From: Planctomycetota bacterium
Lineage (GTDB): Bacteria > Planctomycetota > UBA8108 > UBA1146
DNA length: 64,000 nucleotides
Direction of reading: 5' to 3'
Assembly (NCBI GenBank): GCA_036125855.1
Contig: JAYZTT010000017.1
Location: 21,323-85,322 of the forward strand
Made by a program: the position numbers and the translations under genes. Below the pieces are notes generated by a model, which worked only from the letters and a program-made list of their open reading frames with translations, made no database searches and was not told where the DNA came from. This document shows positions 4,482 through 41,519 of the stretch, one piece after another (position 1 is the stretch's first letter; each line of letters begins with the position of its first letter).

Positions 4482-5090
4482 CTATCGACCGCGGCTGGCG
4501 AGTCGAACCAGATCCTCGGCACTGGTTTCGTCAGGGTATTCAGCAACCGTTTTCCTGACTCGATCCTGTGCATCGGAGAGCTGGAATCCGAGAACCTGCA
4601 GAGCTCGCACGGCATCGGCGGGAGCCCCTTCCGGAACTCCAACCGTCGCAGGAGATCCAGCCCTCGACGCCAGATCTTCCTTTTCCAGGGCACCACGCAG
4701 ATCGAGAACGATGCGCTGGGCGGTCTTTCGACCGATCCCTTTGACCTTCTCCAGCTCCTCGGTACGTCCTTCGAGAACCGCTTCTCGGAGACGTTCCTGG
4801 TCCACCTCGGACAGCAGGGCTATGGCACTGGCGGGGCCCACTCCCGAAACCTGGCAGATCTGTTCGAAGAAATCCCGTTCTTCCGGCCGGGAAAAACCGA
4901 ACAGGACCATCTGTTCCTCGCGAATTCGATGGGAAATGAAGATACGCGCACGAGAACCGACGCGAAGTTTCTCGAGAGTACCTGCTGGCGCTCGCAGCCG
5001 GTGCCCTACTCCGGATACCTCCAGCACAACAGACTGTGCGGTGATTCGGACCACTTCTCCCGAAAGATATTCGTACAAATCAAACCTCAC
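4482..5090 (-). CDS. ruvA: Holliday junction branch-migration complex subunit RuvA
   Basis: YEYLSGEV..LEVSGVGHRL..LFGFSRPEERDFFEQICQVSGVGPASAIALLS..LEKVKGIGRKTAQRIVLDLRG is collinear with RuvA (OB fold, two HhH, domain III). GTG start overlaps the stop of the upstream gene by 1 nt. Confidence 0.9.
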   Translation of the reverse strand: MRFDLYEYLSGEVVRITAQSVVLEVSGVGHRLRAPAGTLEKLRVGSRARIFISHRIREEQMVLFGFSRPEERDFFEQICQVSGVGPASAIALLSEVDQERLREAVLEGRTEELEKVKGIGRKTAQRIVLDLRGALEKEDLASRAGSPATVGVPEGAPADAVRALQVLGFQLSDAQDRVRKTVAEYPDETSAEDLVRLASRGR

Positions 5091-6358
5091 TAGCCACTAG
5101 AGAGATTCAATCCTCGCTCGTTGAGTTTTTTCTTCACCTCATTGAGGGAGGTGACGCCAAAATTCTTCTGGCTCACCAGTTCAAGTTCATTGCGCTGCAG
5201 CAGATCAGCGATCGTCTCGATCTCGAGCCGATCCATGCACCTCTGACTCCTGCTGGAAAGTTCCAGGATACTGACCGGTTCTCCAAGCAAGGAAGCGGCT
5301 TCTCCATTGACTGTCAGGAGTCTGGTGTCGTCACTGCGGACTCCTTCTCCCAGTCGAAGGTTCTTCTGATTGAGGATCTTCCGGATCTCCTGGAGACTCG
5401 TTTCTCCAAAGTTCTTGTAGGAGAGCAACTCTGCCTCGGACTTGCTGACCAGATCTCCAAGGGTAAAAATTCCCATCTTCTGGAGACAGTTCCGGGACCG
5501 TACCGACAGTTCGAATTCGGTGACCGGAATCTGCAAGACCTGCTGTTTGCGGATATCCTCTTTCTCTTTATCGCGATCGTAGTACATCGACTGAGAAGCC
5601 TCTGCATCGCGCAGGTACAGTTTTGCCCGGCGGTGATTCGGATTGGAGAGCAGAACCATTCGATAACAGGTGATTGCTTCCTCGAACCGATCCGCGTCCT
5701 CGTAGAGGACCCCGAGATTGACCATCGCATGTGCATACAGAGGAGCGGTTCTCTGACACATCCTGTACGCTTCGATGGCTTTCTCTTCATCTCCGTAGAG
5801 GGAGTGCATGTAACCGAGCCGGAACTGGTATCGGGTCTCTTCCGGATTCCCCTCTGCAGCGTCACTGTAGCAAACCAGAGCTTCCTCATACTCTCCCTCA
5901 TGCTGATGCAACAATCCGCGCAGATAACGAATTCTCGGGTGATCCTGTGGAGCAGAGATGTCACTGAAAATCTCACGTGCTCTTTCCACCTCCCCCTCGA
6001 GAATCAATGCTTCGCAGTAGAGCATCCCCACGCGTGGTTCATTCGATCCGTGATTCCATCCTGGATCGAGCACCTTGAGTGCTTGCTCTGAATTCCCCTC
6101 TTCAAGGAGCAATTTACCGAGCAGGTGCATACACAGAGGATTGCTCTGGCAACGAGCCAGGACATCTCTCGCATCGACTCTACGACCGAGCAGGTCGAGA
6201 ACCACTCCCCGGCGAAAATCATCCTCGATGGAATCGAGAAGCTCTTCCAGTTCGTCGATCCCATCCCGGCGAGAGGTCACCCCTTGCCGCGCTTCATGAT
6301 AGAAATCAACACTCGTCTGAGTCTCGAGAATGAGTTCTCGTAGAGAAGACTGGTTCAT
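5090..6358 (-). CDS. TPR-repeat protein with two C-terminal RNA polymerase alpha-subunit CTD-like (HhH) domains
   Basis: TPR-like helical repeats (e.g. AIEAYRMCQRTAPLYAHAMVNLGVLYEDADRFEEAITCYRMVLLSNPNH). These are followed by two alpha-CTD-like units: IPVTEFELSVRSRNCLQKMGIFTLGDLVSKSEAELLSYKNFGETSLQEIRKIL and ILELSSRSQRCMDRLEIETIADLLQRNELELVSQKNFGVTSLNEVKKKL. The ORF is open to 6475; ATG 6358 (MNQSSLREL) is preferred. Confidence 0.8.
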   Translation of the reverse strand: MNQSSLRELILETQTSVDFYHEARQGVTSRRDGIDELEELLDSIEDDFRRGVVLDLLGRRVDARDVLARCQSNPLCMHLLGKLLLEEGNSEQALKVLDPGWNHGSNEPRVGMLYCEALILEGEVERAREIFSDISAPQDHPRIRYLRGLLHQHEGEYEEALVCYSDAAEGNPEETRYQFRLGYMHSLYGDEEKAIEAYRMCQRTAPLYAHAMVNLGVLYEDADRFEEAITCYRMVLLSNPNHRRAKLYLRDAEASQSMYYDRDKEKEDIRKQQVLQIPVTEFELSVRSRNCLQKMGIFTLGDLVSKSEAELLSYKNFGETSLQEIRKILNQKNLRLGEGVRSDDTRLLTVNGEAASLLGEPVSILELSSRSQRCMDRLEIETIADLLQRNELELVSQKNFGVTSLNEVKKKLNERGLNLSSG

Positions 6359-6693
6359 AGAACTATTGGAACTCAAGGATGCCCCCTCGATGTCGAATTG
6401 ATGAAAACTACTAAGGATGACCGACCAAACTGCAGCGAAACCACACCCCACCGACTTTCCTCGGAAAAACTGCAAAAATCGGCGGAAGTTGACGTAGGAT
6501 CATAAGTAACGCTAAACGCCGCGTCAACGCGAACAAGCCGCCCAGAACCCCATCGCTTTCCTTGCCTGCCTCCCCGGTTGCATAGAATATGGCATCTGGG
6601 CCGTCACCGATACCGCTAGTGGCCCACAGGAGATCGTCAAAGTGGCCTCACAACCCCTTGCCGTGGCACAACCTCGGTAGATTTGGAAGATCG

Positions 6694-13975: not shown

Positions 13976-14235
13976 TAGCCCTTCTGCGAGATCGAAATCT
14001 CCCCCATTCGCGACCCTTGAGATCGATATCAATGGCTTCCAGCCCCCCTCAAACCCCACTCGCAACATCAACTCCGCGGGACTACAATCGAGGTAGCCCC
14101 GCCCCATGACATTCTGAGATCTACACGATGAGGCTCATGAGCCGCCCTTGTCGGTCGATTTTCTGTCAAGGGTCGGTAGGTTGGGCAACGATCAGATTTA
14201 ACTTCATGTCCCGCAAGACACTGAAAGGGGACTTC

Positions 14236-16641
14236 ATGTCTCGTAATCCAAATGGACTGGTGCCGCAATTCCTGCTGCTGGGTTTGACGGTCCTGTGCAT
14301 CTCGACCAGCCCGGTTCTTGCTCAATGCGATCCCGGTGGTGGTATGGGAGGAAATGGAGCCGACGTGATCGTGGGCGAGTTGACCGGTACCCAGAGCTAT
14401 GGAAATTCCGGTGGCTATTACGCCTTTTCGGTCGGTACCACTTCCTGCAACATCGGCACCGAGGAACTGCTCTGGATCGCCAGCACCAATGAACATCCGG
14501 TGATCGGTCAGAACATGTTCCGTCTCAAAGATGGAACCTTCGAGCAGATCGGAATGAGCTGGCTAAAGCACGGCTTCACTGCTTTGCAGGGAAACACTTG
14601 CGGCTGTGGCTGCGTTTCTTCCGGAACCGGATCCCGACTGGGAGTCGGATGCTCGGATCCCTATGGCGCCGGTCTCAACGGAAGTCAGGGAAGCCTTGGC
14701 TCTCGTTCTGAAGTCACCGATCCTGCTCACGGAATCTTCATCTATCCCCAGGTGATGGATCCCAGCAACCTGGATCTGACCTATCGCCGCTTGCGGGTTC
14801 ACGGCAACGATCTGAATCCCACTCTCAACAGTGGTGCCACCTACTTCGTCGAGGGCCATTACATCACCCCAGACGACGCAGCAGCAGGCAATCATCACAA
14901 CAACACCAGCTATCGCCAGATCACCGTCTCCGCCAGCACCAGTAACCACTCCATCGCCTTCACCGGATCCACCCAACGCCAGCAGCCAGGGATCCAGGCG
15001 TGGCAGGACAACGATCCGAGCGTGACCCTGGTCGACATCGATGACGGAAACGATGGGCTGCTGATTCTTGGCTACAAGGTCACCCAGCAAACGGCAAACC
15101 TGTGGCAATACGAATATGCCCTCTACAACATGGATTCGACCCGTTCGGTGCGCAGTTTCTCGCTGCCATTGCTCGGTGTTGTCGCCAGTGACATCGGTTT
15201 CCACGATGTCGAATACCACAGTACCGAAGTCTATGACGGCACCGACTGGGCGGTTTCGACTGCCGGCGGAGAAATCAGCTGGAGCACTTCGACCTTCGCT
15301 CAGAACAGCAATGCCAACGCTCTGCGCTGGGGAACGATGTACAACTTCCGCTTCGTCACCACTTCTGCGCCGACCAATGCCAACGCAACCCTCGGTCTGT
15401 TCACAACGGGAGGTTCCGTACTGGTACCGATCTTGGCACCGATGGTCGGCAATCTCGACTGCAACAACAACGGGATTCCCGATGCCGATGAAATCGCCAA
15501 CGGAGCTTCCGATTGTGATTCGAATGGCCTGCTCGATGAATGTCAGGACGACTGCGATAACGACGGTGTGGCGGACGCCTGCGAACTGATCAACGGAGCG
15601 CTCGACTGCGACGGAGATTTCATACCTGACACCTGTCAGATCTCCAGTGGTGCTGCCGACTGTGATTTCGATGGAGTTCTCGACAGCTGTGAAATCAGTC
15701 AGGGCACCGAGACCGACTGCGACCTCAACGGCACCATCGATAGCTGTCAAATCGCCGCCAATCCAGATAGCGATTGTGACAACAATGGTGTGCTCGATTC
15801 TTGCGAAGCGGCGGGGATCTTCTCCTTCGTTGACAACGTCGTGCCACCGGCTCCCATCTCCAGTTCCGATCCCCCGGTGGTGAGAACCATCAACGTCGAC
15901 CAGATCGGACTCGTTGATGACGTCGATGTCCTGATCGAGCTGAACCACACCTGGATCGGCGATCTCACCATCTCCCTGGTCAATCCCTCGGGAACCAACG
16001 TTGCGCTTCACAGCCAATCAGGTGGAGATGCCGACGACATCAATACCGTTTACGACGATGACGGTGGTGCCGGCACCACTTCCCCCGCCTCACCACTCTC
16101 TGGCTTCGATGGCCAGAATGCGCTGGGGAACTGGACCTTGACGGTCGCCGACACCGTCGGTGGAGATTCCGGTGTACTGAACGTCTGGGGACTCGACATC
16201 GCCATCGCCGGCGCTGGCCTCCCCGATTGCAATAACAATGGAATTCATGACGGTTGCGAGCTTTCTGCAGCCAACGACTGCAACAACAATGGCGTTCTCG
16301 ACGAGTGTGACATCTCATCGGGCACCAGCACCGATACCAATAACGATGGCATTCCAGACGAGTGCGGTGGAGTCACCTACGTTACTGGTGATACCAACGC
16401 TGACGGCAGCCATGACATCAGTGACGCGGTGAATATCCTCACCTACCTGTTTGGAGGCGGACAGATCACATGCCTCGCTTCCCTCAACAACAACGGGGAC
16501 AACTCTGTGGATATCTCCGACGTGGTATACCTGCTCGTGTACCTGTTTGACGGTGGAGCCAATCCGGCCGCACCCTTCCCGGCCTGTGGTCTGGGCGGTG
16601 CCTCTGGACTCAGCTGCGACTCCTTCAACTCCTGCCCCTGA
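14236..16641 (+). CDS. Large secreted protein: conserved Cys-containing N-domain, DCDxNGxxDxC calcium-binding-like repeats, proprotein-convertase P-domain, dockerin-like C-terminal module
   Basis: Signal peptide MSRNPNGLVPQFLLLGLTVLCISTSPVLAQ. About 10 repeats of DC(D/N)xNGxxDxC (15451-15815). P-domain VDDVDVLIELNHTWIGDLTISLVNPSGTNVALHS...GNWTLTVADTVGGDSGVLNVWGLDI (about 15880-16205). Tail GDTNADGSHDISDAVNILTYLFGGG... The ORF is open from 14128; other candidate starts are 14206 and 14236. Confidence 0.8.
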   Translation: MSRNPNGLVPQFLLLGLTVLCISTSPVLAQCDPGGGMGGNGADVIVGELTGTQSYGNSGGYYAFSVGTTSCNIGTEELLWIASTNEHPVIGQNMFRLKDGTFEQIGMSWLKHGFTALQGNTCGCGCVSSGTGSRLGVGCSDPYGAGLNGSQGSLGSRSEVTDPAHGIFIYPQVMDPSNLDLTYRRLRVHGNDLNPTLNSGATYFVEGHYITPDDAAAGNHHNNTSYRQITVSASTSNHSIAFTGSTQRQQPGIQAWQDNDPSVTLVDIDDGNDGLLILGYKVTQQTANLWQYEYALYNMDSTRSVRSFSLPLLGVVASDIGFHDVEYHSTEVYDGTDWAVSTAGGEISWSTSTFAQNSNANALRWGTMYNFRFVTTSAPTNANATLGLFTTGGSVLVPILAPMVGNLDCNNNGIPDADEIANGASDCDSNGLLDECQDDCDNDGVADACELINGALDCDGDFIPDTCQISSGAADCDFDGVLDSCEISQGTETDCDLNGTIDSCQIAANPDSDCDNNGVLDSCEAAGIFSFVDNVVPPAPISSSDPPVVRTINVDQIGLVDDVDVLIELNHTWIGDLTISLVNPSGTNVALHSQSGGDADDINTVYDDDGGAGTTSPASPLSGFDGQNALGNWTLTVADTVGGDSGVLNVWGLDIAIAGAGLPDCNNNGIHDGCELSAANDCNNNGVLDECDISSGTSTDTNNDGIPDECGGVTYVTGDTNADGSHDISDAVNILTYLFGGGQITCLASLNNNGDNSVDISDVVYLLVYLFDGGANPAAPFPACGLGGASGLSCDSFNSCP

Positions 16642-16661
16642 CGTGGGACACAGGGAATTTG

Positions 16662-16702
16662 ACGGCCCCTTCCGGAGAATCCGGACGGGGCCGTTTCTAT
16701 TT
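16662..16702 (+). terminator. Intrinsic terminator after the 14236-16641 gene
   Basis: ACGGCCCC-T-TCCGGA-GAA-TCCGGA-C-GGGGCCGT extended hairpin followed by TTTCTATTT. Confidence 0.55.
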
Positions 16703-16809
16703 CGACCACCGGATAGACTTCTCGCCCCTTGTATCCACCGCGCGGCAATTGAAGATAGCTGCGTTGTCCGATCCATCGATGCAGTTCTCTCCAGCTCTCA
16801 GGAGGTGTC

Positions 16810-17367
16810 ATGAAGTCCCTGTTCCATCTTCTCGGTACGGTTGCCGACGGCCCGGCGAAAATTTTGATCCTCACGGTGCCGCTGTTGTTCGTACTGGGAA
16901 CCAGCAACTTGCCATCGGTCGATCGTGACGACAAAAGCGAGACGGCAAAGCCGAAGATCGAGGACTTCGCCTGGCTTGCCGGGGAGTGGCGCGGTGAGGG
17001 CTTCGGCGGCACCTGTGAAGAGATCTGGAGCCATCCGCTTGCCGGTACCATGGTCGGGACCTTTCGCCTGGTGAAAGACGATGCAGTGGTCTTCTACGAG
17101 ATCATGGTGCTCGGTCCCGACAAGGAGGGGTTCGCCCTGAAGGTGAAACACTTCTCCCAGGAATTTGTGGCCTGGGAGGACAAGGAAACTGCGGTGCGAT
17201 TCCCCTTTCAGTCGGTAAAAAATGGTGATGCCCGCTTTTCCGGTTTGACCCTGGCCCGCCAAAAGAATCAGCTGGAGATCAAAGTCAGAATGCGAGAAAG
17301 CGACGGTTCGACCCACTGGGAGCCTATTCAGCTGAAACGTCATACTCCGTCTCGGTCCAGGAACTAG
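16810..17367 (+). CDS. Hypothetical protein, DUF6265-like (tentative)
   Basis: 185-aa ORF with strong SD (AGGAGG). N-terminal hydrophobic segment, then FAWLAGEWRGEG...EEIW...GTMVGTFR...FYEIMVL, a pattern I associate with DUF6265. Family call is from memory only. Confidence 0.55.
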   Translation: MKSLFHLLGTVADGPAKILILTVPLLFVLGTSNLPSVDRDDKSETAKPKIEDFAWLAGEWRGEGFGGTCEEIWSHPLAGTMVGTFRLVKDDAVVFYEIMVLGPDKEGFALKVKHFSQEFVAWEDKETAVRFPFQSVKNGDARFSGLTLARQKNQLEIKVRMRESDGSTHWEPIQLKRHTPSRSRN

Positions 17368-17493
17368 TCGTTTCGACGGTTCCAGCACGCATCAGCGGAT
17401 CGCCTGCTCCCTTGTATCTCTTGCAGTGCAGGGGAAAATGGTTGTTGGCCCTGGCATATCTATTCTGCTCTCGCCAACCCTTCAGGAGGTGTC

Positions 17494-19887
17494 ATGAAGG
17501 TTCTGAAGCAACTCCTCTGCGCGCTCGTCATCGCGATGATCCACGTCACGTTGTTCGCCCAGAATCCCGTGATCCTGCACAGCGTCGCCAGCCCGTTTGA
17601 CGATCACCACTACCTGTTACTCGATGCCAGTAGCTGGACCGAGGCGGAAGCGCAAGCCAACGCCTGGGGTGCCAATCTGGTCGCGGTCGGGGATCAAGCA
17701 GAGATGGATTTCATTCACGACAACTTCAGCGCCTTTCAGGGTACCGGTCGGCGACTGTGGCTGGGACTCAACGACATCGCCATCGAGGGTGTATTCGAGT
17801 GGAGTAACGGAGAAACGCTCACCTACACCGACTGGAACGCTGGCGAACCCAATAACTCCGGCAATGAGGATATGGTCCATACCCTCGAGAACCCGCCATA
17901 TCTGTGGAATGACATCAATGAGGGAACCAATCCTGTCAACACCTATGGCATCGTCGAGCTGGAAACGTGTGGATATACGGGACCCGATGCGATCATCTCA
18001 AACTCGGTCGGCCCCGACATCGTTCTGGAGTTCACCAACAACGGGCCCTACACCGACACCTTCGACATCTGGCGCGATGGTCAGTTCTATCAGAGTATCA
18101 CCGACCCGGCAGCGACCAGCTGGACCGACACCAACGTCTGTCAGGGTCGCTATGAGTACATCATCGTTGTCTCGGATGGCGCCTGCTTCACCTTCACCGA
18201 GTCCATCGATGTATTCCATGGCTTCGATCTCTATGCCAGCACTGACCCGCCGCTACCGATCCCCAATAACGATCCGATCGGAGTGACCTCCGTCGTCAGC
18301 ATCACCGACAACTACATCATCCAGGATGTCGATGTGGAAGTGCACATCTTCCACACATGGACACGGGAAGTGGGCATCGATATCTTTCACCCCTCGACCA
18401 CCCTCGTCACTCTCAAGCAGTATGTGGCCGGCTCCCCCAGTGATGTGAATCACATTCATACCGTCTTCGACGACCAGGGGATTCCGTTCGATGAGGATCA
18501 GATCCCGCTCGATATTCACATGCAACCGCAGGGGCCCGGGACACTCTTTGACTTCGCCGGCCTACCCATCGATGGCGACTGGAGATTGACCGTCACCGAC
18601 AACGATGGTGCCGAGACGGGACAGCTGGAAAACTGGTCAATTCATCATCTGGATGGGCCACCATGCCAGCTGACTCCCCCGAGTTCGTTCAGCTCCTCCA
18701 GTAACGGTCCCGAGGTGACTCTGACCTGGGATCTCAACGGGAACTTCTACACCGACATCGAGGTACTGAGAAACGGTCAACTGGTCGAAACCATCGACGG
18801 CAGCGACCAGCAGTGGAGCGAGGTGGTCCAGGGCGGACCCGCTTATTACAGCTATCAATTGCGCTGTCTGGACAACTCCATAACACCTTGCTGTGTCATC
18901 GACAGCGCTACCGTGGGCGCACTTGTGAATGCAGTCGATGTGGTCTGGGCAGCCGAGGGTAGCGGAGGCAATATCGACTCCGCCACCGCCATCGCCGATG
19001 CTCTGGTCCTCAATGGGCTCAATCCGGCGGTGATGCCCGAGATTCTCTCCTGCAATTGCCTGCTCTCTTCGCCCGATTTACAGCGGGTGTGGGTCGCCTC
19101 GGGGACCTACCCTGATTACCACTGCATGACCACTGCAGAGGGAACGCTCCTGGCCGAACTCATCGCCAACGGAATCGATGTCTATGTCGAGGGTGGTGAT
19201 GTCTGGGGATTCTGTCCTCAGACTCCCTTCGCCGACTGGGATGGCATCGGAGATGGAGTCGTCGACGGTGATGATACCCTGCTCGACCTGATTGGACTCT
19301 CCTACGACATCCTCGACCTGACCGGAATGGATGCCGCCTACAACCAGGATCAAGTCGGCAGCGATTGGACCGATCGCCTGGTTGCTGCCGATCCCTTGAC
19401 ACCGGATCAGGCCGGCATCAGCAGTGGCGCCATCTGGCAACAATCGGGAATCGGCTACAGCACCGGCAACTTCTACGCGACCGACGATCCCTATGGTGAG
19501 GTACTGACACAGTCGTGGGAATTTGGTGGTTACAGCGCGGAACAGGGCGTGCTGATGGGGATTTACCTGGAAGCGATCGGGGCCACCGGTGGTCCGCCGC
19601 AGGAGATCTTCCGTCGTGGCGATGTCAACTCTGACACGGGAGTCAATATCGCCGATGCGGTGCGACTGCTGAACGGGCTTTTCGTTCCCGGTTCGCCTCA
19701 ACCGGAGTGCTATGATAGTGCCGACGTCAATGACGACGGTTCGAGCAACGTGGCGGATGCTGTCTACCTGCTCGGTGCACTGTTCATCCCGGGCTCACCG
19801 AATCCTCCGCCACCGGGCCTTCAGAACTGCGGGCCCGATCCGACCGATGACAACCTCGATTGCGCAAAGTACGAGGTATGTTCCTAG
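17494..19887 (+). CDS. Secreted C-type lectin domain protein with proprotein-convertase P-domain and dockerin-like C-terminal module
   Basis: Signal MKVLKQLLCALVIAMIHVTLFAQ. CTLD: SWTEAEAQANAWGANLVAV..RRLWLGLND..EGVFEWSNGE..YTDWNAGEPNN..EDMV..WNDI (about 17600-17965). P-domain IIQDVDVEVHIFHTWTREVGIDIFHPS...GDWRLTVTDNDGAETGQLENWSI (about 18250-18650). Tail RGDVNSDTGVNIADAVRLLNGLF... Confidence 0.85.
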   Translation: MKVLKQLLCALVIAMIHVTLFAQNPVILHSVASPFDDHHYLLLDASSWTEAEAQANAWGANLVAVGDQAEMDFIHDNFSAFQGTGRRLWLGLNDIAIEGVFEWSNGETLTYTDWNAGEPNNSGNEDMVHTLENPPYLWNDINEGTNPVNTYGIVELETCGYTGPDAIISNSVGPDIVLEFTNNGPYTDTFDIWRDGQFYQSITDPAATSWTDTNVCQGRYEYIIVVSDGACFTFTESIDVFHGFDLYASTDPPLPIPNNDPIGVTSVVSITDNYIIQDVDVEVHIFHTWTREVGIDIFHPSTTLVTLKQYVAGSPSDVNHIHTVFDDQGIPFDEDQIPLDIHMQPQGPGTLFDFAGLPIDGDWRLTVTDNDGAETGQLENWSIHHLDGPPCQLTPPSSFSSSSNGPEVTLTWDLNGNFYTDIEVLRNGQLVETIDGSDQQWSEVVQGGPAYYSYQLRCLDNSITPCCVIDSATVGALVNAVDVVWAAEGSGGNIDSATAIADALVLNGLNPAVMPEILSCNCLLSSPDLQRVWVASGTYPDYHCMTTAEGTLLAELIANGIDVYVEGGDVWGFCPQTPFADWDGIGDGVVDGDDTLLDLIGLSYDILDLTGMDAAYNQDQVGSDWTDRLVAADPLTPDQAGISSGAIWQQSGIGYSTGNFYATDDPYGEVLTQSWEFGGYSAEQGVLMGIYLEAIGATGGPPQEIFRRGDVNSDTGVNIADAVRLLNGLFVPGSPQPECYDSADVNDDGSSNVADAVYLLGALFIPGSPNPPPPGLQNCGPDPTDDNLDCAKYEVCS

Positions 19888-19902
19888 AGAGAAGAGTTTC
19901 TG

Positions 19903-21471
19903 ATGCTGCACGGGTACAACCTCAAGCGGATCCTGTTTGTGTCACTTCTACTGCTGTGCTGCGGAAGCAGTGGTGCCATCGCACAGGTGATCCTTCATAC
20001 CGACGACCAGGCATCCTCCGGTAGCAATACGGCTCATAACATGGTGCGCAATGGCAACGGTGAACTGTACGTGCTGTCACTGGAACGGACCCCCAATGGT
20101 GAGACACCCCTGATCGTGCAGCAGTCCACCGATGGAGGTTCCACCTGGACCACCCTGCCCCAGAACCTCAATGATGCCGACAGCGGACTCCTCGGCCCCG
20201 ATCCAGCGAGTCACTGCTCGATGGCCATCGACGATCAGGGAATCCTCCACGTGCTCTGGGGACGTTACACCTACCCATCCTATTTCCGTCAGTTCTACCG
20301 TCGCTACGATCCGGTCACCGGTTTTCGCTCCGACATCGTCGAGATCAGCACCGTGACCGGTGCCCCCCTCAACTCCCGAACATCAGCGATGGACATCCTC
20401 ATCGATGGTAACAACACGGTGTGGATTGCCGGCCACCACCCATCGAGCTGGGTCGACCATCTGCTGCGGAGCGATCAGCCCTATGCAGCGGATGATGCGT
20501 TCACCGATCTGGGTCCGATCAGTCCCGCCAATAGTGCTCAGAACTCCAGACTGGCTGTCGATACCGGCGGCAGGATCCACTGCACCTTCTACCGCAACGT
20601 CGGAGAAGGACAGTACGAACACCGGATCTATGACCCCCCGAGCGGAGCCTGGCAGCTCGACACCTTCGTTCTGGGCAACACCGACGGCACCAACGATTTT
20701 TTCGGCTGGGTCTCGGCGGACGGTCTGGGATCGGTTCACTGTGCCTACGTCGTCGATGCTTTCTCCTCATCGCCACTGTGGAGTTTCCGTTACCGGAGCT
20801 GGGATGAGATCAATGGCTGGAGCGATGAGACGATTCTGTTTGAAGCGACCACCGCTCAATTCACCAACATCGCCAGTTACAAGATCTTCAACATCGGCTG
20901 TGACGAGAGCAACGGCACCGTGTATGCCGTCTACCGCGATCTTTCAGCCGAAGGCGAACTGGTGCTGGCAGAAAAGACCCCGACTTCACCCGACTTCATC
21001 ATTTCACAGCAGTTGCAGCCAACAAATCTCGGAGAGCACGCATACACCTATCCGACGCTTCGTGGCACCCTCTACCCATCTTTCAACAACACCAGCCATG
21101 GCATTGACCTCACCTACCAGTGGCGCGAGTTCCCTGGCTCTCCCCCCTACTCACTGGTTTATCACGACGCATCGGTCGGCTCGGTGATTCGATTCATCCG
21201 TGGGGATACCAACCAGGACGGAAGTTACAACGTCGCCGACATCGTATTCGGTCTCAACTCGCTATTCGTACCGGGAGGTGTCAGCCCCGCCTGTATCGAG
21301 AGTTGCGACATCAATGACGACGAATCCTTCAACATCGCCGACATGGTGTTTGGATTGAATTCGCTGTTTGTGCCCGGATCTCCAGCGCCTACGGCACCGT
21401 ATCCCGCTTGTGGTCAGGATCCCATCGGTGGCACTCTCGATTGCCCCGCCAGCAGTCCCGCCTGCCCCTAG
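19903..21471 (+). CDS. Secreted BNR/Asp-box (sialidase-like beta-propeller) protein with dockerin-like C-terminal module
   Basis: Signal MLHGYNLKRILFVSLLLLCCGSSGAIAQ. Asp-box QSTDGGSTWT. Tail RGDTNQDGSYNVADIVFGLNSLFVPGG...INDDESFNIADMVFGLNSLFVPGS... Confidence 0.8.
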   Translation: MLHGYNLKRILFVSLLLLCCGSSGAIAQVILHTDDQASSGSNTAHNMVRNGNGELYVLSLERTPNGETPLIVQQSTDGGSTWTTLPQNLNDADSGLLGPDPASHCSMAIDDQGILHVLWGRYTYPSYFRQFYRRYDPVTGFRSDIVEISTVTGAPLNSRTSAMDILIDGNNTVWIAGHHPSSWVDHLLRSDQPYAADDAFTDLGPISPANSAQNSRLAVDTGGRIHCTFYRNVGEGQYEHRIYDPPSGAWQLDTFVLGNTDGTNDFFGWVSADGLGSVHCAYVVDAFSSSPLWSFRYRSWDEINGWSDETILFEATTAQFTNIASYKIFNIGCDESNGTVYAVYRDLSAEGELVLAEKTPTSPDFIISQQLQPTNLGEHAYTYPTLRGTLYPSFNNTSHGIDLTYQWREFPGSPPYSLVYHDASVGSVIRFIRGDTNQDGSYNVADIVFGLNSLFVPGGVSPACIESCDINDDESFNIADMVFGLNSLFVPGSPAPTAPYPACGQDPIGGTLDCPASSPACP

Positions 21472-21480
21472 GCAGCACCA

Positions 21481-22395
21481 TCACTGATCGGCGTGCAAGC
21501 CAAGGGCTCGCTTGAGCCCGGCGATGTTCTTGTAGTCGTCCCAGTAGCGATAGAGCACCCGGTGATTCGGGTCGATGATGACCAGATCACCCGGCCAGGC
21601 TGCATCATAGTCATCGACGATCTTGACCTGTCGGCGACCATCGATCTTGACCCGGATGAATCCATCAACCAGCTTTTTAATCTCCTCGTCTTCTGTCAGC
21701 AGCTTGTGAATTCTCTCGGTCTGGGTACACCCCTCCGCTTCGATGAACAGTAATCGATTGCCCCAGGTCCATTGTGATTCATCGAGGCCCTTGTCAAAGT
21801 CGAGCCAGTGAATCGGAGGTGGTGGTGGATCGATCCCGGCTTTTCTGAGCAGATCATCAAGCCATTGACGATCGAAACCTGATTTGGAGCGCTTCCTCGG
21901 AAGAATGCCCTGCCATAGCACCTTGCCCTGGGAATCGAGGAAGAACGCCGAAGGATAATAAATCACTCCATGACGCTCCTGATTGGCAGTGCCATCGACC
22001 AGAAGTGGAAACGTAACTTTGTTCTTATCGACGAGTTTCTGAGCGGGTTTTGAATTTTTTGAGGAGTGAGAAAAGATGGTAAGGATCGAAAGATATTCGG
22101 GACCCAGTTCTCGATGCCACCTGACCAGGCTTGGCAATGCGGGAGCGCAAGACTCTCAACCAGGGATCGTATAGACGATCAGTTGCGGTTTTCCTCGCAA
22201 GCTCGCCAGTCGAAGATTCTGGTGGCTGTTGATCCAGCGACCGCCCTCCTCGACTACCAACTCCGGCAACTCCTTTCCAAGGTGTGAAACGCGAAAGGTC
22301 TCGCGATTCTGCTCCTGAGCAGATAGCTGCTCCGGAATCAGCGTCGAGGAGAGGGAAAGGGCGGCCACCAGAATCCAAGAAGTTGGCATCACCAT
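21481..22395 (-). CDS. Periplasmic TlpA/redoxin-like thiol:disulfide oxidoreductase, candidate selenoprotein (in-frame UGA at 22158-22156), plus a second thioredoxin-like C-terminal domain
   Basis: Track ORFs 22156..22494 and 21481..22137 are in the same frame, separated only by TGA plus six sense codons. Joined: signal MVMPTSWILVAALSLSSTLIPEQLSAQ, then LRGKPQLIVYTIPG-[UGA]-ESCAPALPSLVRWHRELGPEYLSILTIF...KVTFPLLVDG...YYPSAFFLDSQGKVLWQG. This is the TlpA/ResA pattern, with UGA where the first Cys of WCxxC sits. AAGGAGG lies 6 nt before ATG 22395. If UGA is a true stop, this is a pseudogene or two ORFs. Confidence 0.6.
22116..22135 (-). promoter_or_regulatory. Candidate bacterial SECIS hairpin
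   Basis: mRNA GCC(AA)GCCU-GGUC-AGGUGGC: 7 bp with a 2-nt bulge and apical loop GGUC. The stem starts 20 nt and the loop 29 nt after the UGA. The spacing and G-first loop are compatible with described bSECIS constraints. Confidence 0.45.
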
Positions 22396-22452
22396 CGTTC
22401 CCTCCTTGCCCAGTGGACGAACTGGGCAGTCCTGTTGTTCCTGAAATCGGCC

Positions 22453-22487
22453 AAAAAAAGTGGCCCTGAGGAAAACCCCAGGGCCAC
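22453..22487 (-). terminator. Intrinsic terminator after the MFS transporter gene
   Basis: 9-bp stem GTGGCCCTG/CAGGGCCAC (22460-22468/22479-22487), followed on the minus strand by U7 (A-run 22453-22459 on plus). Confidence 0.75.
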
Positions 22488-22511
22488 TCCTCACTCGTTT
22501 CCGGATCTCAT

Positions 22512-38811: not shown

Positions 38812-41397
38812 TTACCGATTTACCAGGAGCAGCAGGGCGTTGAGAAAAAGGTCGGCAGTACCACGCCAGAAGGACCTGAATAGCGGATCTCCAGCAAAGA
38901 GAACCACCGTACCGCGGCCGACACTCTCCTCGACCAACCACACTCCTCCCGCCAGGTTTTTCTGGTTCTGGTCCGAGATGAAGCCACTCACCACTGGATT
39001 CTCTTCGGCAAGAACTCCCACATCTCCGGGATTTCCTACCAGTTCGAAGATCCGGGTACTTGCGATGAAGCCATAGACTCTCGAAGGCTGACCGAATGCA
39101 ATCGGATGGTCTGGATCGAGCTCGACCGACACGATGTTGCCCGGCACCTGGTCCAATCGTCTCTCTTCCCGGAGATCTGCTCGGGTCCGCCTTTTCTTCT
39201 CTGTCTCCTTCTCGGGTGGATTCTTTCTCACCCTGTGCGAAACAAGATCGAGACCCCCATCTCCACACTGAAAGGCACTACTACCGAGAGCCAGCAGCAC
39301 TCCCCCACCTCGTACCCAGTCACGTAGTTGTTCTTTTTGAGGATTGCCCCAGGCGGAGCCACGAAATCCGGAGGGAATCACCAGCACATCAAAACGATCC
39401 AGCGATCCACTCAGGTCAGATCTGGAAACAGTGGTCGAGACGACGCCCAGGTCTTGCTCCAGAAAACTCCACACTGCTCCATAGGATGTACTCGATACCG
39501 AATCCGGTCCCAGCACGGCGATCCTTGCCGGTGCCAGTTCAGGGAAGGAACCGGAACCAAGATCAGGTCCTTCATCGGTCCAGCCGCTCGATACTCCACG
39601 GAAGACGGTGCCGGTCTCCCGGGCAACCCTCAGGACCGTCTCGTGAGTTTGTTCCGAGGAGATCCTCACCACCAGCGTGCCCGCTGGATAATCATGACCC
39701 TGTAACTGGATCTTCTCCGTCACCAGATCAACGGTCTCTCCTGCAGCCTGCAACGCTCGTAGTGCTCGTGCAGATGGCACACCCTCCCACGGATGGAGGT
39801 AGGCAACGCCTCCTTGCTCCTCGATCCGACCGGTCGGTAGCTCCAGATCACCAACGGGGATGAGAATCCCATCGACAGGATTGGCGGCAAGATAAGTGTC
39901 CACACCAAATGCCATCGGTAGAGACCAGGCGGCCACGTCATAAAAATACGCCTCCTCCGCCTTCGCTTCTGGTTCCAGCAGGGTGCGCGCCAACCGTCCC
40001 TGAGGTTGATCGAGCGGAACGATCACGGTGCCGGGAGGAAGCTTGAGTATTTCCATCTTCCTTCCATCGTGATGCTTCAATCCATCAACCACGATCTCAT
40101 CCATCGTCTGTACCAGCTCGATTCCCTGGGCACGTAGCAACTTCAAGAGGGAGAGACGACGATCACCGCCTCCTGGCGGAATGATGAACTGACTGATGTC
40201 TCCAGAGCGCCCCGCGAAAATGGCACCTTCACGGAAAGCATGGAAATCTTTCTGAAGTCGAATCTTGTTTCTTGCAGCACAATCAACCGTTGCCAGGCCT
40301 GCTACGTGATGATGATGGAGGCGATCTTTCAGGGTCAAGAAAGTGCCGTTTCGCTTGCGATAGATCAGACCCGCCCTACCTCCACCGGCCTGTTCGTAGG
40401 TCATTCCGATCGAACCGTTGAGAGTTGGCCAGGAGTCACCGTAAGCGGGATAGAACAGGTCGAAATGCTGGCCCGTGTAATACCGCCAGCCAAACCGATC
40501 AAATGCCCCTGCATTGGCCAGGCCAAACACCTCACTCCAATCGACACGATCTTGCGGAATGTTGGGATTGATCGGCTTCTCGGGAGGAAAGAAAAAGTAG
40601 GTGGACTCCGCAGACATCTCATGAAAATCAACATGAACCAGCGGTTGCCACAACAGGTAGTGCTCGATCCGAGCTCTGGTTTCCGGTTGGCTTTGCCAAG
40701 CCCAGTCTCGATTCAGATCGAACAGGTAATGGTTGCTTCTGCCGGAGGGGGAAGGGGGATGGTGTTCTGCCGCAGCAGGATCGGCATTGGGTGGCTGTGC
40801 CATCACCTGGTGGTACCACTGAAGATATCTCTCGCGCCCGTCTGGATTGAGCAAGGGATCGATGATGACGAGGCAATTTTCGCGAATCTGACGGATCCTC
40901 TCATCGGAACCATCGGCCAGTTGATGAATCGTGGCCAGCGCTGCCTCGGTACCGGAGGACTCATCGCCGTGCACGTTGTAGGAGAGCCAGACCACCGCTG
41001 GCAGGTCCTTCAGCAACCGGTCGATATCGAGCTGTTCTCGTTCCTGAAGACGTCGGGGATCGGCAAGTAATTGCTGAGCGGTACGGATCTCCTCGAGCCG
41101 GGCGATATTTGACTCCGTTGAGATCATCAAGAGCACCAGTTCTCGTCCCTCAGCACTGCGCCCATATTCCTGGATCTGGACCCTCGATGACAGTTTCGCG
41201 ACTTCCCGGCAGTAGGCCATCACCTCATGGTGAGGAGTGAATCGATCACCCAGCTCAGTTCCATACCATGCTCCCGGAGAAGGGATCTTCCCCTCAAAAG
41301 TGTCGCTATCACTGTAGGGAAAAGCTGGCTCACTTGCTGATAGGGGCAAGAGCCCGGTGAGTAGTGCGCACAAGACAATCAGTAATAGCTTCGGCAT
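38812..41397 (-). CDS. M14-family zinc carboxypeptidase-like protein with large C-terminal extension
   Basis: VVWLSYNVHGDESSGTEAAL (HxxE zinc site), DPLLNPDGRERY, FDLNRDW, VDFHE. AGGAGG precedes ATG 41397 (MPKLLLIVLCALL signal); the ORF is open to 41454. Confidence 0.85.
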   Translation of the reverse strand: MPKLLLIVLCALLTGLLPLSASEPAFPYSDSDTFEGKIPSPGAWYGTELGDRFTPHHEVMAYCREVAKLSSRVQIQEYGRSAEGRELVLLMISTESNIARLEEIRTAQQLLADPRRLQEREQLDIDRLLKDLPAVVWLSYNVHGDESSGTEAALATIHQLADGSDERIRQIRENCLVIIDPLLNPDGRERYLQWYHQVMAQPPNADPAAAEHHPPSPSGRSNHYLFDLNRDWAWQSQPETRARIEHYLLWQPLVHVDFHEMSAESTYFFFPPEKPINPNIPQDRVDWSEVFGLANAGAFDRFGWRYYTGQHFDLFYPAYGDSWPTLNGSIGMTYEQAGGGRAGLIYRKRNGTFLTLKDRLHHHHVAGLATVDCAARNKIRLQKDFHAFREGAIFAGRSGDISQFIIPPGGGDRRLSLLKLLRAQGIELVQTMDEIVVDGLKHHDGRKMEILKLPPGTVIVPLDQPQGRLARTLLEPEAKAEEAYFYDVAAWSLPMAFGVDTYLAANPVDGILIPVGDLELPTGRIEEQGGVAYLHPWEGVPSARALRALQAAGETVDLVTEKIQLQGHDYPAGTLVVRISSEQTHETVLRVARETGTVFRGVSSGWTDEGPDLGSGSFPELAPARIAVLGPDSVSSTSYGAVWSFLEQDLGVVSTTVSRSDLSGSLDRFDVLVIPSGFRGSAWGNPQKEQLRDWVRGGGVLLALGSSAFQCGDGGLDLVSHRVRKNPPEKETEKKRRTRADLREERRLDQVPGNIVSVELDPDHPIAFGQPSRVYGFIASTRIFELVGNPGDVGVLAEENPVVSGFISDQNQKNLAGGVWLVEESVGRGTVVLFAGDPLFRSFWRGTADLFLNALLLLVNR

Positions 41398-41519
41398 CAA
41401 ACCTCCTGGATCATCTGTCCCTGAGCAGTCATGGTGGTCTTCGATCAGTGACATTCTGCCTCCACAACGATCCCCAGGCTAGATCTCCCTGGGACAGGTT
41501 AGATAAGGGAACCGAGTTG

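Follow-up and report, generated by a model that had tools for sequence, protein, structure and literature searches.

A Cys-extended dockerin tail on secreted proteins of marine Planctomycetota and its probable role in a large cohesin-dockerin surface-assembly system

The assembly of secreted proteins through cohesin and dockerin modules is textbook biology of anaerobic, Gram-positive cellulose degraders; the largest dockerin sets among known cellulosome producers, those of Ruminococcus flavefaciens FD-1 and Pseudobacteroides cellulosolvens, comprise about 210 to 225 modules. Outside those degraders cohesin-dockerin pairs are, to our knowledge, mostly curiosities of annotation for which no system has been worked out. 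The Planctomycetota are regarded as a diderm phylum. For one of its freshwater families, the Nemodlikiaceae, the "planctosome" hypothesis has been proposed (Andrei et al. 2019, ISME J, PMC6461901). That model involves a few proteins of one family and proposes anchoring via the lamin-tail domain (LTD), with a protein that combines LTD, P-domains, thrombospondin (TSP) repeats and a cohesin. A survey of cellulosome-displaying genomes mentions only one organism of the PVC (Planctomycetes-Verrucomicrobia-Chlamydiae) superphylum, Limihaloglobus sulfuriphilus (PMC11557425). Here we analyze a window of 64,000 nucleotides, positions 21323 to 85322 of contig C17 in a 2.81-Mb planctomycete genome of 29 contigs, whose nearest placement by UvrD is "Planctomycetes bacterium UBA1146" (81% identity). 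Three adjacent genes in the window, called A, B and C below, encode secreted proteins with the same C-terminal tail. This tail is a divergent type I-like dockerin with a Pro-rich extension of about 30 residues. We propose, with a probability of roughly 0.7, that it is the stapled dockerin of a planctosome-type system, very large in size, in which cohesins and dockerins assemble proteins at the cell surface, and not a sorting signal.

The initial annotation of this DNA had described three adjacent secreted proteins that share two dockerin-like repeats and four Cys residues at the C terminus, and it had proposed that the carriers be counted with a hidden Markov model (HMM), that a partner be sought by phylogenetic profiling and that the tail be modeled. 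All three open reading frames (ORFs) are present and co-directional, each has a Sec-type signal peptide, and the translations of the three tails match the quoted sequences exactly. The tails are located as follows.

16381 to 16638, + strand: tail A, two F-hand repeats and a linker Cys, followed by an extension (16549 to 16638) with 3 Cys that ends in ...SCP-stop
19609 to 19884, + strand: tail B, dockerin core (19609 to 19785) and Pro/Cys extension (19786 to 19884)
21193 to 21468, + strand: tail C, helix 1 at amino acids 14 to 25, linker Cys at amino acid 34 (21292 to 21294), helix 3 at amino acids 48 to 59
21370 to 21468, + strand: extension of tail C, amino acids 60 to 92 of the AlphaFold model

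The three tails (86 to 92 amino acids) share 28 invariant columns, are 40 to 45% identical in the alignment, and score 131 to 158 bits (tail A, 131) with an HMM built from them. Across 147 C-terminal tails the consensus of repeat 1 is F-x-R-G-D-x-N-x-D-G-x-h-[ND]-I-A-D-A-I-x-x-L-x-x-L-F-x-G-G-x3-4-C, that of repeat 2 is x-D-A-x-D-x-N-D-D-G-x-h-[DN]-I-A-D-A-[IV]-x-x-L-x-x-L-F-x-G-G, and that of the extension is x-x-P-P-x-P-x-P-x-C-G-x-D-P-T-x-D-x-L-x-C-x5-C-P-stop (in short form GGxxPPAPfPxCGxDPTxDxLxCx5CP, about 30 Pro-rich residues). The motif DxNxDGxx[ND]IAD is thus present twice, and each repeat is an F-hand followed by a helix. D16 and D50, at position 12 of each repeat, are Asp in all 147 tails; the Ca ligands D5, N7, D9, D39, N41 and D43 are kept in at least 133 of them, and the N-terminal aromatic residue F1 in 133. 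Pfam Dockerin_1 (PF00404; gathering cut-off, 22.9 bits) recognizes tail B at 28 to 34 bits, and the family spans tail residues 2 to 55 only. The Cys pattern is an addition to the dockerin.

The AlphaFold2 model of tail C (from a 100-tail alignment) has a mean predicted local distance difference test score (pLDDT) of 94.3 and a predicted template modeling score (pTM) of 0.85, with helices at residues 14 to 25, 35 to 38 and 48 to 59. It is a type I dockerin fold over residues 1 to 60 with the extension beyond. When the model was searched against PDB with Foldseek, the top 30 matches were all dockerins (55 to 61 aligned columns; root mean square deviation, 1.6 to 2.4 Å; target-normalized template modeling score, 0.51 to 0.82). 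These solved dockerins are 56 to 73 residues long and leave the extension unaligned; residues 60 to 92 of the model (pLDDT, 81 to 91) have no counterpart in them. Canonical dockerins lack the extension, because in a control with 251 genomes of the Clostridia phylum the matches to the tail profile run from position 1 to about 54 to 70 only.

The tail resembles the type I dockerins (PF00404) of C. thermocellum, C. cellulolyticum and A. cellulolyticus (PDB 1ohz, 2vn5, 4dh2 and 5nrk) in its three-helix fold, in two copies of a 22-residue F-hand whose Ca ligands occupy positions 1, 3, 5, 9 and 12, in its usual C-terminal place on secreted proteins, and in the many cohesins encoded by the same genome. 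The near-symmetry of its two repeats is in keeping with dual binding. Unlike the matched solved type I dockerins and the matches in the Clostridia phylum, it has a linker Cys and the Pro-rich extension of about 30 amino acids with 1 or 3 more Cys. The Cys-stapled, extended form would be a variant of the known dockerin and a previously undescribed subtype.

The four Cys residues are conserved well beyond genes A to C, with all four present in 118 of the 147 C-terminal tails (counted by HMM column). Where they are lost in this genome, C73 goes together with the last Cys (P = 7.6e-12), and C34 and C84 are retained. An independent set of 312 full modules, taken from the top 150 among 47,154 metagenomic cluster representatives, has the same co-loss (P = 4e-60) and falls cleanly into a 2-Cys class (C34 and C84) of 181 modules and a 4-Cys class of 105. 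An optional third pair, at columns 6 and 38, also covaries (P = 2e-20). The co-loss implies two disulfides, predicted from covariation, one between C34 and C84 (linker to extension) and one between C73 and the last Cys (within the extension). We hypothesize that the first bond acts as a staple between the extension and the linker of the two repeats and that the second closes the extension on itself. We also considered the 2-Cys tail as a marker of cohesin-bearing adaptors, comparable to the type II dockerins on scaffoldins; the two features are only weakly associated (odds ratio, about 2.5; P = 0.04), and we do not claim a link. Cys-free extended tails end three neighboring ORFs of about 900 amino acids (L189, L194 and L197 on G229:C78) in another family of the phylum; they terminate in ...PPPAPFPSEGIDPTPDGLGYVRPR-stop. 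Hence, the Pro-rich GxDPTPDxL extension is kept even without disulfides.

The staple may be a covalent version of the intramolecular clasp of cellulosomal dockerins, in which the termini touch and stabilize the Ca-bound fold (Slutzki et al. 2013, PMC3821032). The tail parallels the clasped dockerins with an aromatic residue conserved at its N terminus, F1, and a C-terminal segment rich in Pro. However, known clasps are noncovalent stacking or hydrogen-bond contacts of one or two residues (PMC3821032), whereas the C-terminal segment of the tail has 30 residues and is presumably stapled by one or two disulfides.

How widely is this module used? Modules were counted on six-frame ORFs with a profile built from 100 tails, which found 162 modules in 158 ORFs of the 2.8-Mb genome; a reversed-sequence control gave zero tail matches (best score, 10 bits), and the similarity among the tails is well above what chance would give. 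The extension is included in 152 of the 162 modules, and 148 end within 12 amino acids of the stop codon; the other 14 are internal or N-terminal, just after the signal peptide. The internal position is taken by 194 of the 312 full modules in other metagenomic proteins. Tail carriers span about 12.9% of the genome length and make up roughly 6% of the genes, an estimate that assumes one gene per 1.05 kb. An N-terminal hydrophobic segment is present in 142 of 152 carriers, compared with 37% of other long ORFs. A global protein search with the tail returned 26,172 cluster representatives at an E-value of 1e-10 or less. Metagenomic proteins with many dockerins also exist: some (among P0001, P0003, P0007, P0010 and P0012) carry as many as 7 extended modules in tandem within 874 amino acids, and others have 8 to 9 core-only repeats.

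The cargo is diverse. Among 80 randomly sampled carriers, the passengers include FG-GAP/VCBS domains, P-domains (4 carriers), S8 and M4 peptidases, endonuclease I, phosphoesterases, di-heme peroxidases, lectins, LTD, penicillin amidase and FGE-sulfatase domains. The families listed for this sample contain no glycoside hydrolase and no cellulase, which sets this marine planctomycete apart from the cellulosomal hosts. Five sampled carriers have a galactose-binding-like domain, PF23759 (GBD_T9SS_assoc), named for the cargo of the type IX secretion system (T9SS). Dockerin_1 itself is detected by Pfam in 7 of the 80 at an E-value of 1e-4 or less.

Both the tail and a candidate partner mark the class to which this bacterium belongs. 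We profiled an even sample of 301 Planctomycetota genomes, 16 of the window's class and 285 others. The tail occurs in 16 of 16 class genomes, each of which reaches the scoring cap and has 125 to 433 first-look candidates, and in only 9 of the 285 others, with 1 to 6 matches each, several of them on contigs of 2 to 4 kb. Confirmed tails number at least 135 in UBA1146 and at least 150 in the 6.2-Mb genome P01_B01_bin.70 (438 candidates); there were none in ten genomes of other lineages. A cohesin profile matches all 16 class genomes but only 2 of the 285 others; tail and cohesin co-occur throughout the class and are nearly absent elsewhere. Larger genomes of this class may exceed the dockerin number of the richest cellulosome producers. 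NCBI lists UBA1146 as unclassified Planctomycetota. The literature on Saltatorellus, OM190 and UBA1135 mentions neither dockerin nor cohesin, and one class member has a GC content (66%) that fits this clade only loosely.

The initial annotation had seen no cohesin-like module in the window, and this was borne out: the nearest ones lie farther along this contig, some 57 kb past the end of the window, where seven genes (C17:142741-159087) encode proteins with two and three cohesins, each ending in the tail. Similar clusters of 2- and 3-cohesin genes are found at C25:52-64 kb and C8:65-71 kb. Pfam Cohesin (PF00963) has 7 matches in the genome, 2 of them above the cut-off. Three proteins of about 400 amino acids are arranged as dockerin-X-dockerin, in which X is a cohesin-like module, and iterated searches of the genome with an HMM built from X found 78 modules in 52 proteins, each a β-sandwich of about 150 amino acids. 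The candidate partner modules are cohesins by sequence profile and by fold. A profile of 16 of them searched against PDB had cellulosomal cohesins as all of its top 9 matches (E-values, 2e-5 to 0.014), and an AlphaFold2 model of a cohesin-dockerin didomain (pLDDT, 93.5) had cohesins of types I, II and III as all of its top 43 Foldseek matches.

The architectures of the 52 cohesin proteins fall into two groups. Forty-six proteins, with 1 to 3 cohesins, also carry the tail, and three of these are the dockerin-cohesin-dockerin proteins. Six lack the tail, of which two are cut by contig ends and the following four are complete.

Tail-less cohesin protein 1, 1622 amino acids: 5 PKD domains, 12 HYR domains and a cohesin
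Tail-less cohesin protein 2, 1991 amino acids: 15 He_PIG domains and a cohesin
Tail-less cohesin protein 3: 3 He_PIG domains and a cohesin
Tail-less cohesin protein 4: 2 He_PIG domains and a cohesin

In all four the cohesin is distal, at the end of a stalk of Ig-like repeats, and direct reading of the N termini found a lipobox in each (TAGC, LSGC, MAGC and VSGC). An automated lipobox scan detected 3 of these 4, along with 3 of 152 tail carriers and 44 of 1,464 background ORFs. The four proteins are likely cell-anchored scaffoldins, judged by their sequences. The cohesin-module tree has several deep clades; modules group by their position within multicohesin proteins, and the lipoprotein cohesins are spread over different clades. 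This clade pattern suggests that the cohesins of this genome may have more than one specificity.

Several points weigh against a cohesin-dockerin system as we propose it. The genome is a metagenome-assembled genome (MAG), 79% complete. Tails A (12.7 bits) and C (13 to 17 bits) score below the Dockerin_1 cut-off. In the 46 proteins that have both modules, the cohesin precedes its own dockerin by 4 to 15 amino acids, and a cohesin in this place could be a structural neighbor, similar to an X-module, or a binder in cis and not a partner in trans. Finally, for many noncellulosomal dockerins of other organisms no cohesin partner has been demonstrated (Peer et al. 2009, as cited in PMC6461901). The dockerins without a known partner, the tandem arrangement, which is unusual for classic enzyme-borne dockerins, and the few Pfam Cohesin matches above the cut-off would also suit a dockerin-fold tail that works independently of the cohesin-like modules, either as a Ca2+-dependent binder of an envelope glycan or polymer or as a stabilizing or solubility tag, with the cohesin-like sandwiches as Ig-like spacers. 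We regard this as unlikely, given that tail and cohesin co-occur exactly at the class level, that the fold and PDB profile matches are specific, with cohesins only, and that the cohesins of the tail-less proteins are found at the far end of lipoprotein stalks, which suits an acceptor and not a spacer. The cohesin-dockerin units could instead polymerize head to tail, or bind in cis, and form an S-layer-like or fiber-like extracellular lattice or matrix in which the enzymes are embedded; the 46 of 52 cohesin proteins with a dockerin, the small secreted proteins that consist only of cohesin-dockerin or dockerin-cohesin-dockerin, and the metagenomic proteins with up to 7 tandem modules are in line with it. 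Yet about 110 carriers without a cohesin have enzymatic or lectin passengers, and the lipoprotein scaffoldins point to anchoring at the cell. We find a lattice in place of a tethered system quite improbable, although it overlaps our proposal instead of excluding it.

The initial annotation had left the choice between a cohesin-dockerin-like module and a so far uncharacterized C-terminal sorting domain. As a secretion or sorting signal, the tail would be recognized by a dedicated machine, as are PEP-CTERM tags or the C-terminal domain (CTD) of T9SS cargo, and be removed or exchanged for an anchor. The extreme C-terminal position of 148 of the 162 modules and their presence on about 6% of the genes are typical of sorting tags, and like the T9SS CTD of Bacteroidota the tail marks the C termini of very diverse secreted and surface proteins across the proteome, with a comparable share of the proteome and with the GBD_T9SS_assoc passenger domain in common. 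However, cellulosomal dockerins are as a rule C-terminal too, and the T9SS CTD is a β-sandwich, whereas the tail is an α-helical module that folds as a Ca-binding dockerin. The tail ends in ...C-x5-C-P, and inspection of the sequences found no hydrophobic stretch or helix and no basic tail. The NCBIfam sorting-signal models, those for T9SS included, do not match the tail at an E-value of 1 or less; its sole NCBIfam match is weak (E = 0.11) and falls in the dockerin-bearing end of a cellobiosidase model. We reject the sorting-signal explanation, to which we give very little chance of being right, because the complete module also occurs N-terminally or internally, here and globally, and lacks the hallmarks of known sorting tags such as the T9SS CTD, PEP-CTERM and LPXTG. 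The cohesin-dockerin-like alternative of the initial annotation is the one supported by the intact Ca ligands, the dockerin fold, the 78 modules of cohesin fold and the class-wide co-occurrence.

How would such a cohesin-dockerin system work? We hypothesize that the tail proteins are exported by ordinary Sec signal peptides and that, outside the cytoplasm, the tail docks onto cohesin modules, presumably in a Ca2+-dependent manner. The lipoproteins with a lipobox signal peptide, a PKD/HYR or He_PIG stalk and one distal cohesin would be the scaffoldins, and the approximately 46 proteins with both cohesin and tail would act as adaptors. This corresponds to the layout expected of such a system, with anchoring scaffoldins made of a lipid anchor, a stalk and a distal cohesin, adaptors (one or more cohesins followed by a dockerin, or dockerin-cohesin-dockerin) and cargo (passenger-dockerin). 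The outcome would be a hierarchical, surface-tethered secretome of peptidases, nucleases, phosphatases, lectins, FG-GAP adhesin-like proteins and heme peroxidases. Because the genome encodes about 158 tail proteins and 78 cohesins, some of the latter on putatively lipid-anchored stalks, a large part of the secretome is probably kept at the cell surface by tethering. A tethered secretome fits a marine bacterium because exoenzymes must be kept from diffusing away.

Genes A, B and C are examples of this cargo, and their passengers are mostly as first described. The features are as follows.

14236 to 16641, + strand: gene A, signal peptide, Cys-rich N-domain, DC[DN]xNG repeats, P-domain, more repeats, dockerin tail
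about 15913 to 16197, + strand: P-domain of gene A (Pfam P_proprotein, E = 5e-16)
17494 to 19887, + strand: gene B, signal peptide, C-type lectin, P-domain, unassigned region, dockerin tail
about 17629 to 17916, + strand: C-type lectin of gene B (Pfam Lectin_C, E = 1.6e-8)
about 18322 to 18645, + strand: P-domain of gene B (Pfam P_proprotein, E = 3.3e-9)
19903 to 21471, + strand: gene C, signal peptide, probable BNR/Asp-box β-propeller passenger, dockerin tail

The ORF of gene A, which ends at 16641 on the + strand, has alternative starts at 14128 and 14236. Its translation contains about 10 DC[DN]xNG repeats similar to thrombospondin type 3 repeats (TSP3; fuller form, DC[DN]xNG..D..C), and its residues 1 to 555 have no Pfam match. 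The P-domain and repeats of gene A and the lectin and P-domain of gene B stand as annotated. The β-propeller assigned to gene C is less clear, with a weak BNR_4 match (E = 0.03) and a single clear Asp-box (STDGGSTW). Where the orthologues of gene C (tail identity, 78 to 86%) are named in public records, they are called "hypothetical protein."

A small secreted DUF6265 protein (16810 to 17367, + strand; E = 3e-33), which has no tail, is encoded between genes A and B. Convergent with gene C is a thioredoxin/redoxin-like gene (21481 to 22494, - strand) that is apparently split over two frames: the ORF at 22156 to 22494 (- strand) encodes the N-terminal piece with a signal peptide, and the ORF at 21481 to 22137 (- strand) encodes only the C-terminal half of the AhpC-TSA/Redoxin domain, with a weak Thioredoxin_7 match. 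The split may stem from a frameshift or from an error of assembly, or the gene may be a pseudogene. A thiol-disulfide oxidoreductase gene adjoins genes for secreted proteins that are putatively rich in disulfides. Farther away in the window, the region from 5090 to 6475 (- strand) encodes a protein of 461 amino acids with an unusual architecture of TPR repeats and two copies of RNA_pol_A_CTD (E = 1e-38).

Our proposal agrees, by analogy, with the planctosome hypothesis and would greatly extend it. Both concern a cohesin/dockerin system in Planctomycetota unlinked to cellulose, and several parts of the planctosome (PMC6461901) recur here: P-domains (genes A and B), TSP3-like repeats (gene A), HYR domains with a cohesin (the lipoprotein of 1622 amino acids) and LTD. 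The passengers here likewise lean toward peptidases, with S8 and M4 among the carriers. M14 peptidases have been proposed as planctosome cargo in the Nemodlikiaceae; in contrast, an M14 zinc carboxypeptidase of 880 amino acids encoded in our window (38812 to 41454, - strand) has no dockerin tail. Unlike the planctosome model with its few proteins in one family, the system here has approximately 158 dockerins and 78 cohesins in a 2.8-Mb genome and is a hallmark of an entire class. The anchors in our genome are apparently lipoproteins with PKD/HYR or He_PIG stalks, and the dockerin has a Cys/Pro extension that the portion of the planctosome description considered does not mention.

With slightly better than even confidence, we extend this proposal to the whole class of marine Planctomycetota that includes UBA1146 and P01_B01_bin.70, which would run one of the largest known cohesin-dockerin interactomes, used for general surface display and not for polysaccharide degradation. 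Its genomes would each contribute about 130 to more than 400 dockerin candidates and dozens of cohesins, or roughly 6% of their genes. In these diderm, noncellulolytic hosts, a disulfide-stapled dockerin subtype and scaffoldins on lipoprotein stalks would together tether most of the secretome. There is also an annotation gap, since current Pfam thresholds miss about 90% of the tail modules and the named public orthologues are "hypothetical protein."

In summary, a class of marine planctomycetes devotes about 13% of the genome length to dockerin-tagged proteins, together with cohesins, and anchors, adaptors and cargo can be recognized among them. If the predicted binding is true, the planctosome idea gains a concrete parts list, and the stapled tail would be a new dockerin subtype that could provide a robust, oxidation-tolerant affinity pair for protein engineering. 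It would also explain how these bacteria retain their exoenzymes in dilute seawater and would bear on the turnover of particles and polymers in the ocean.

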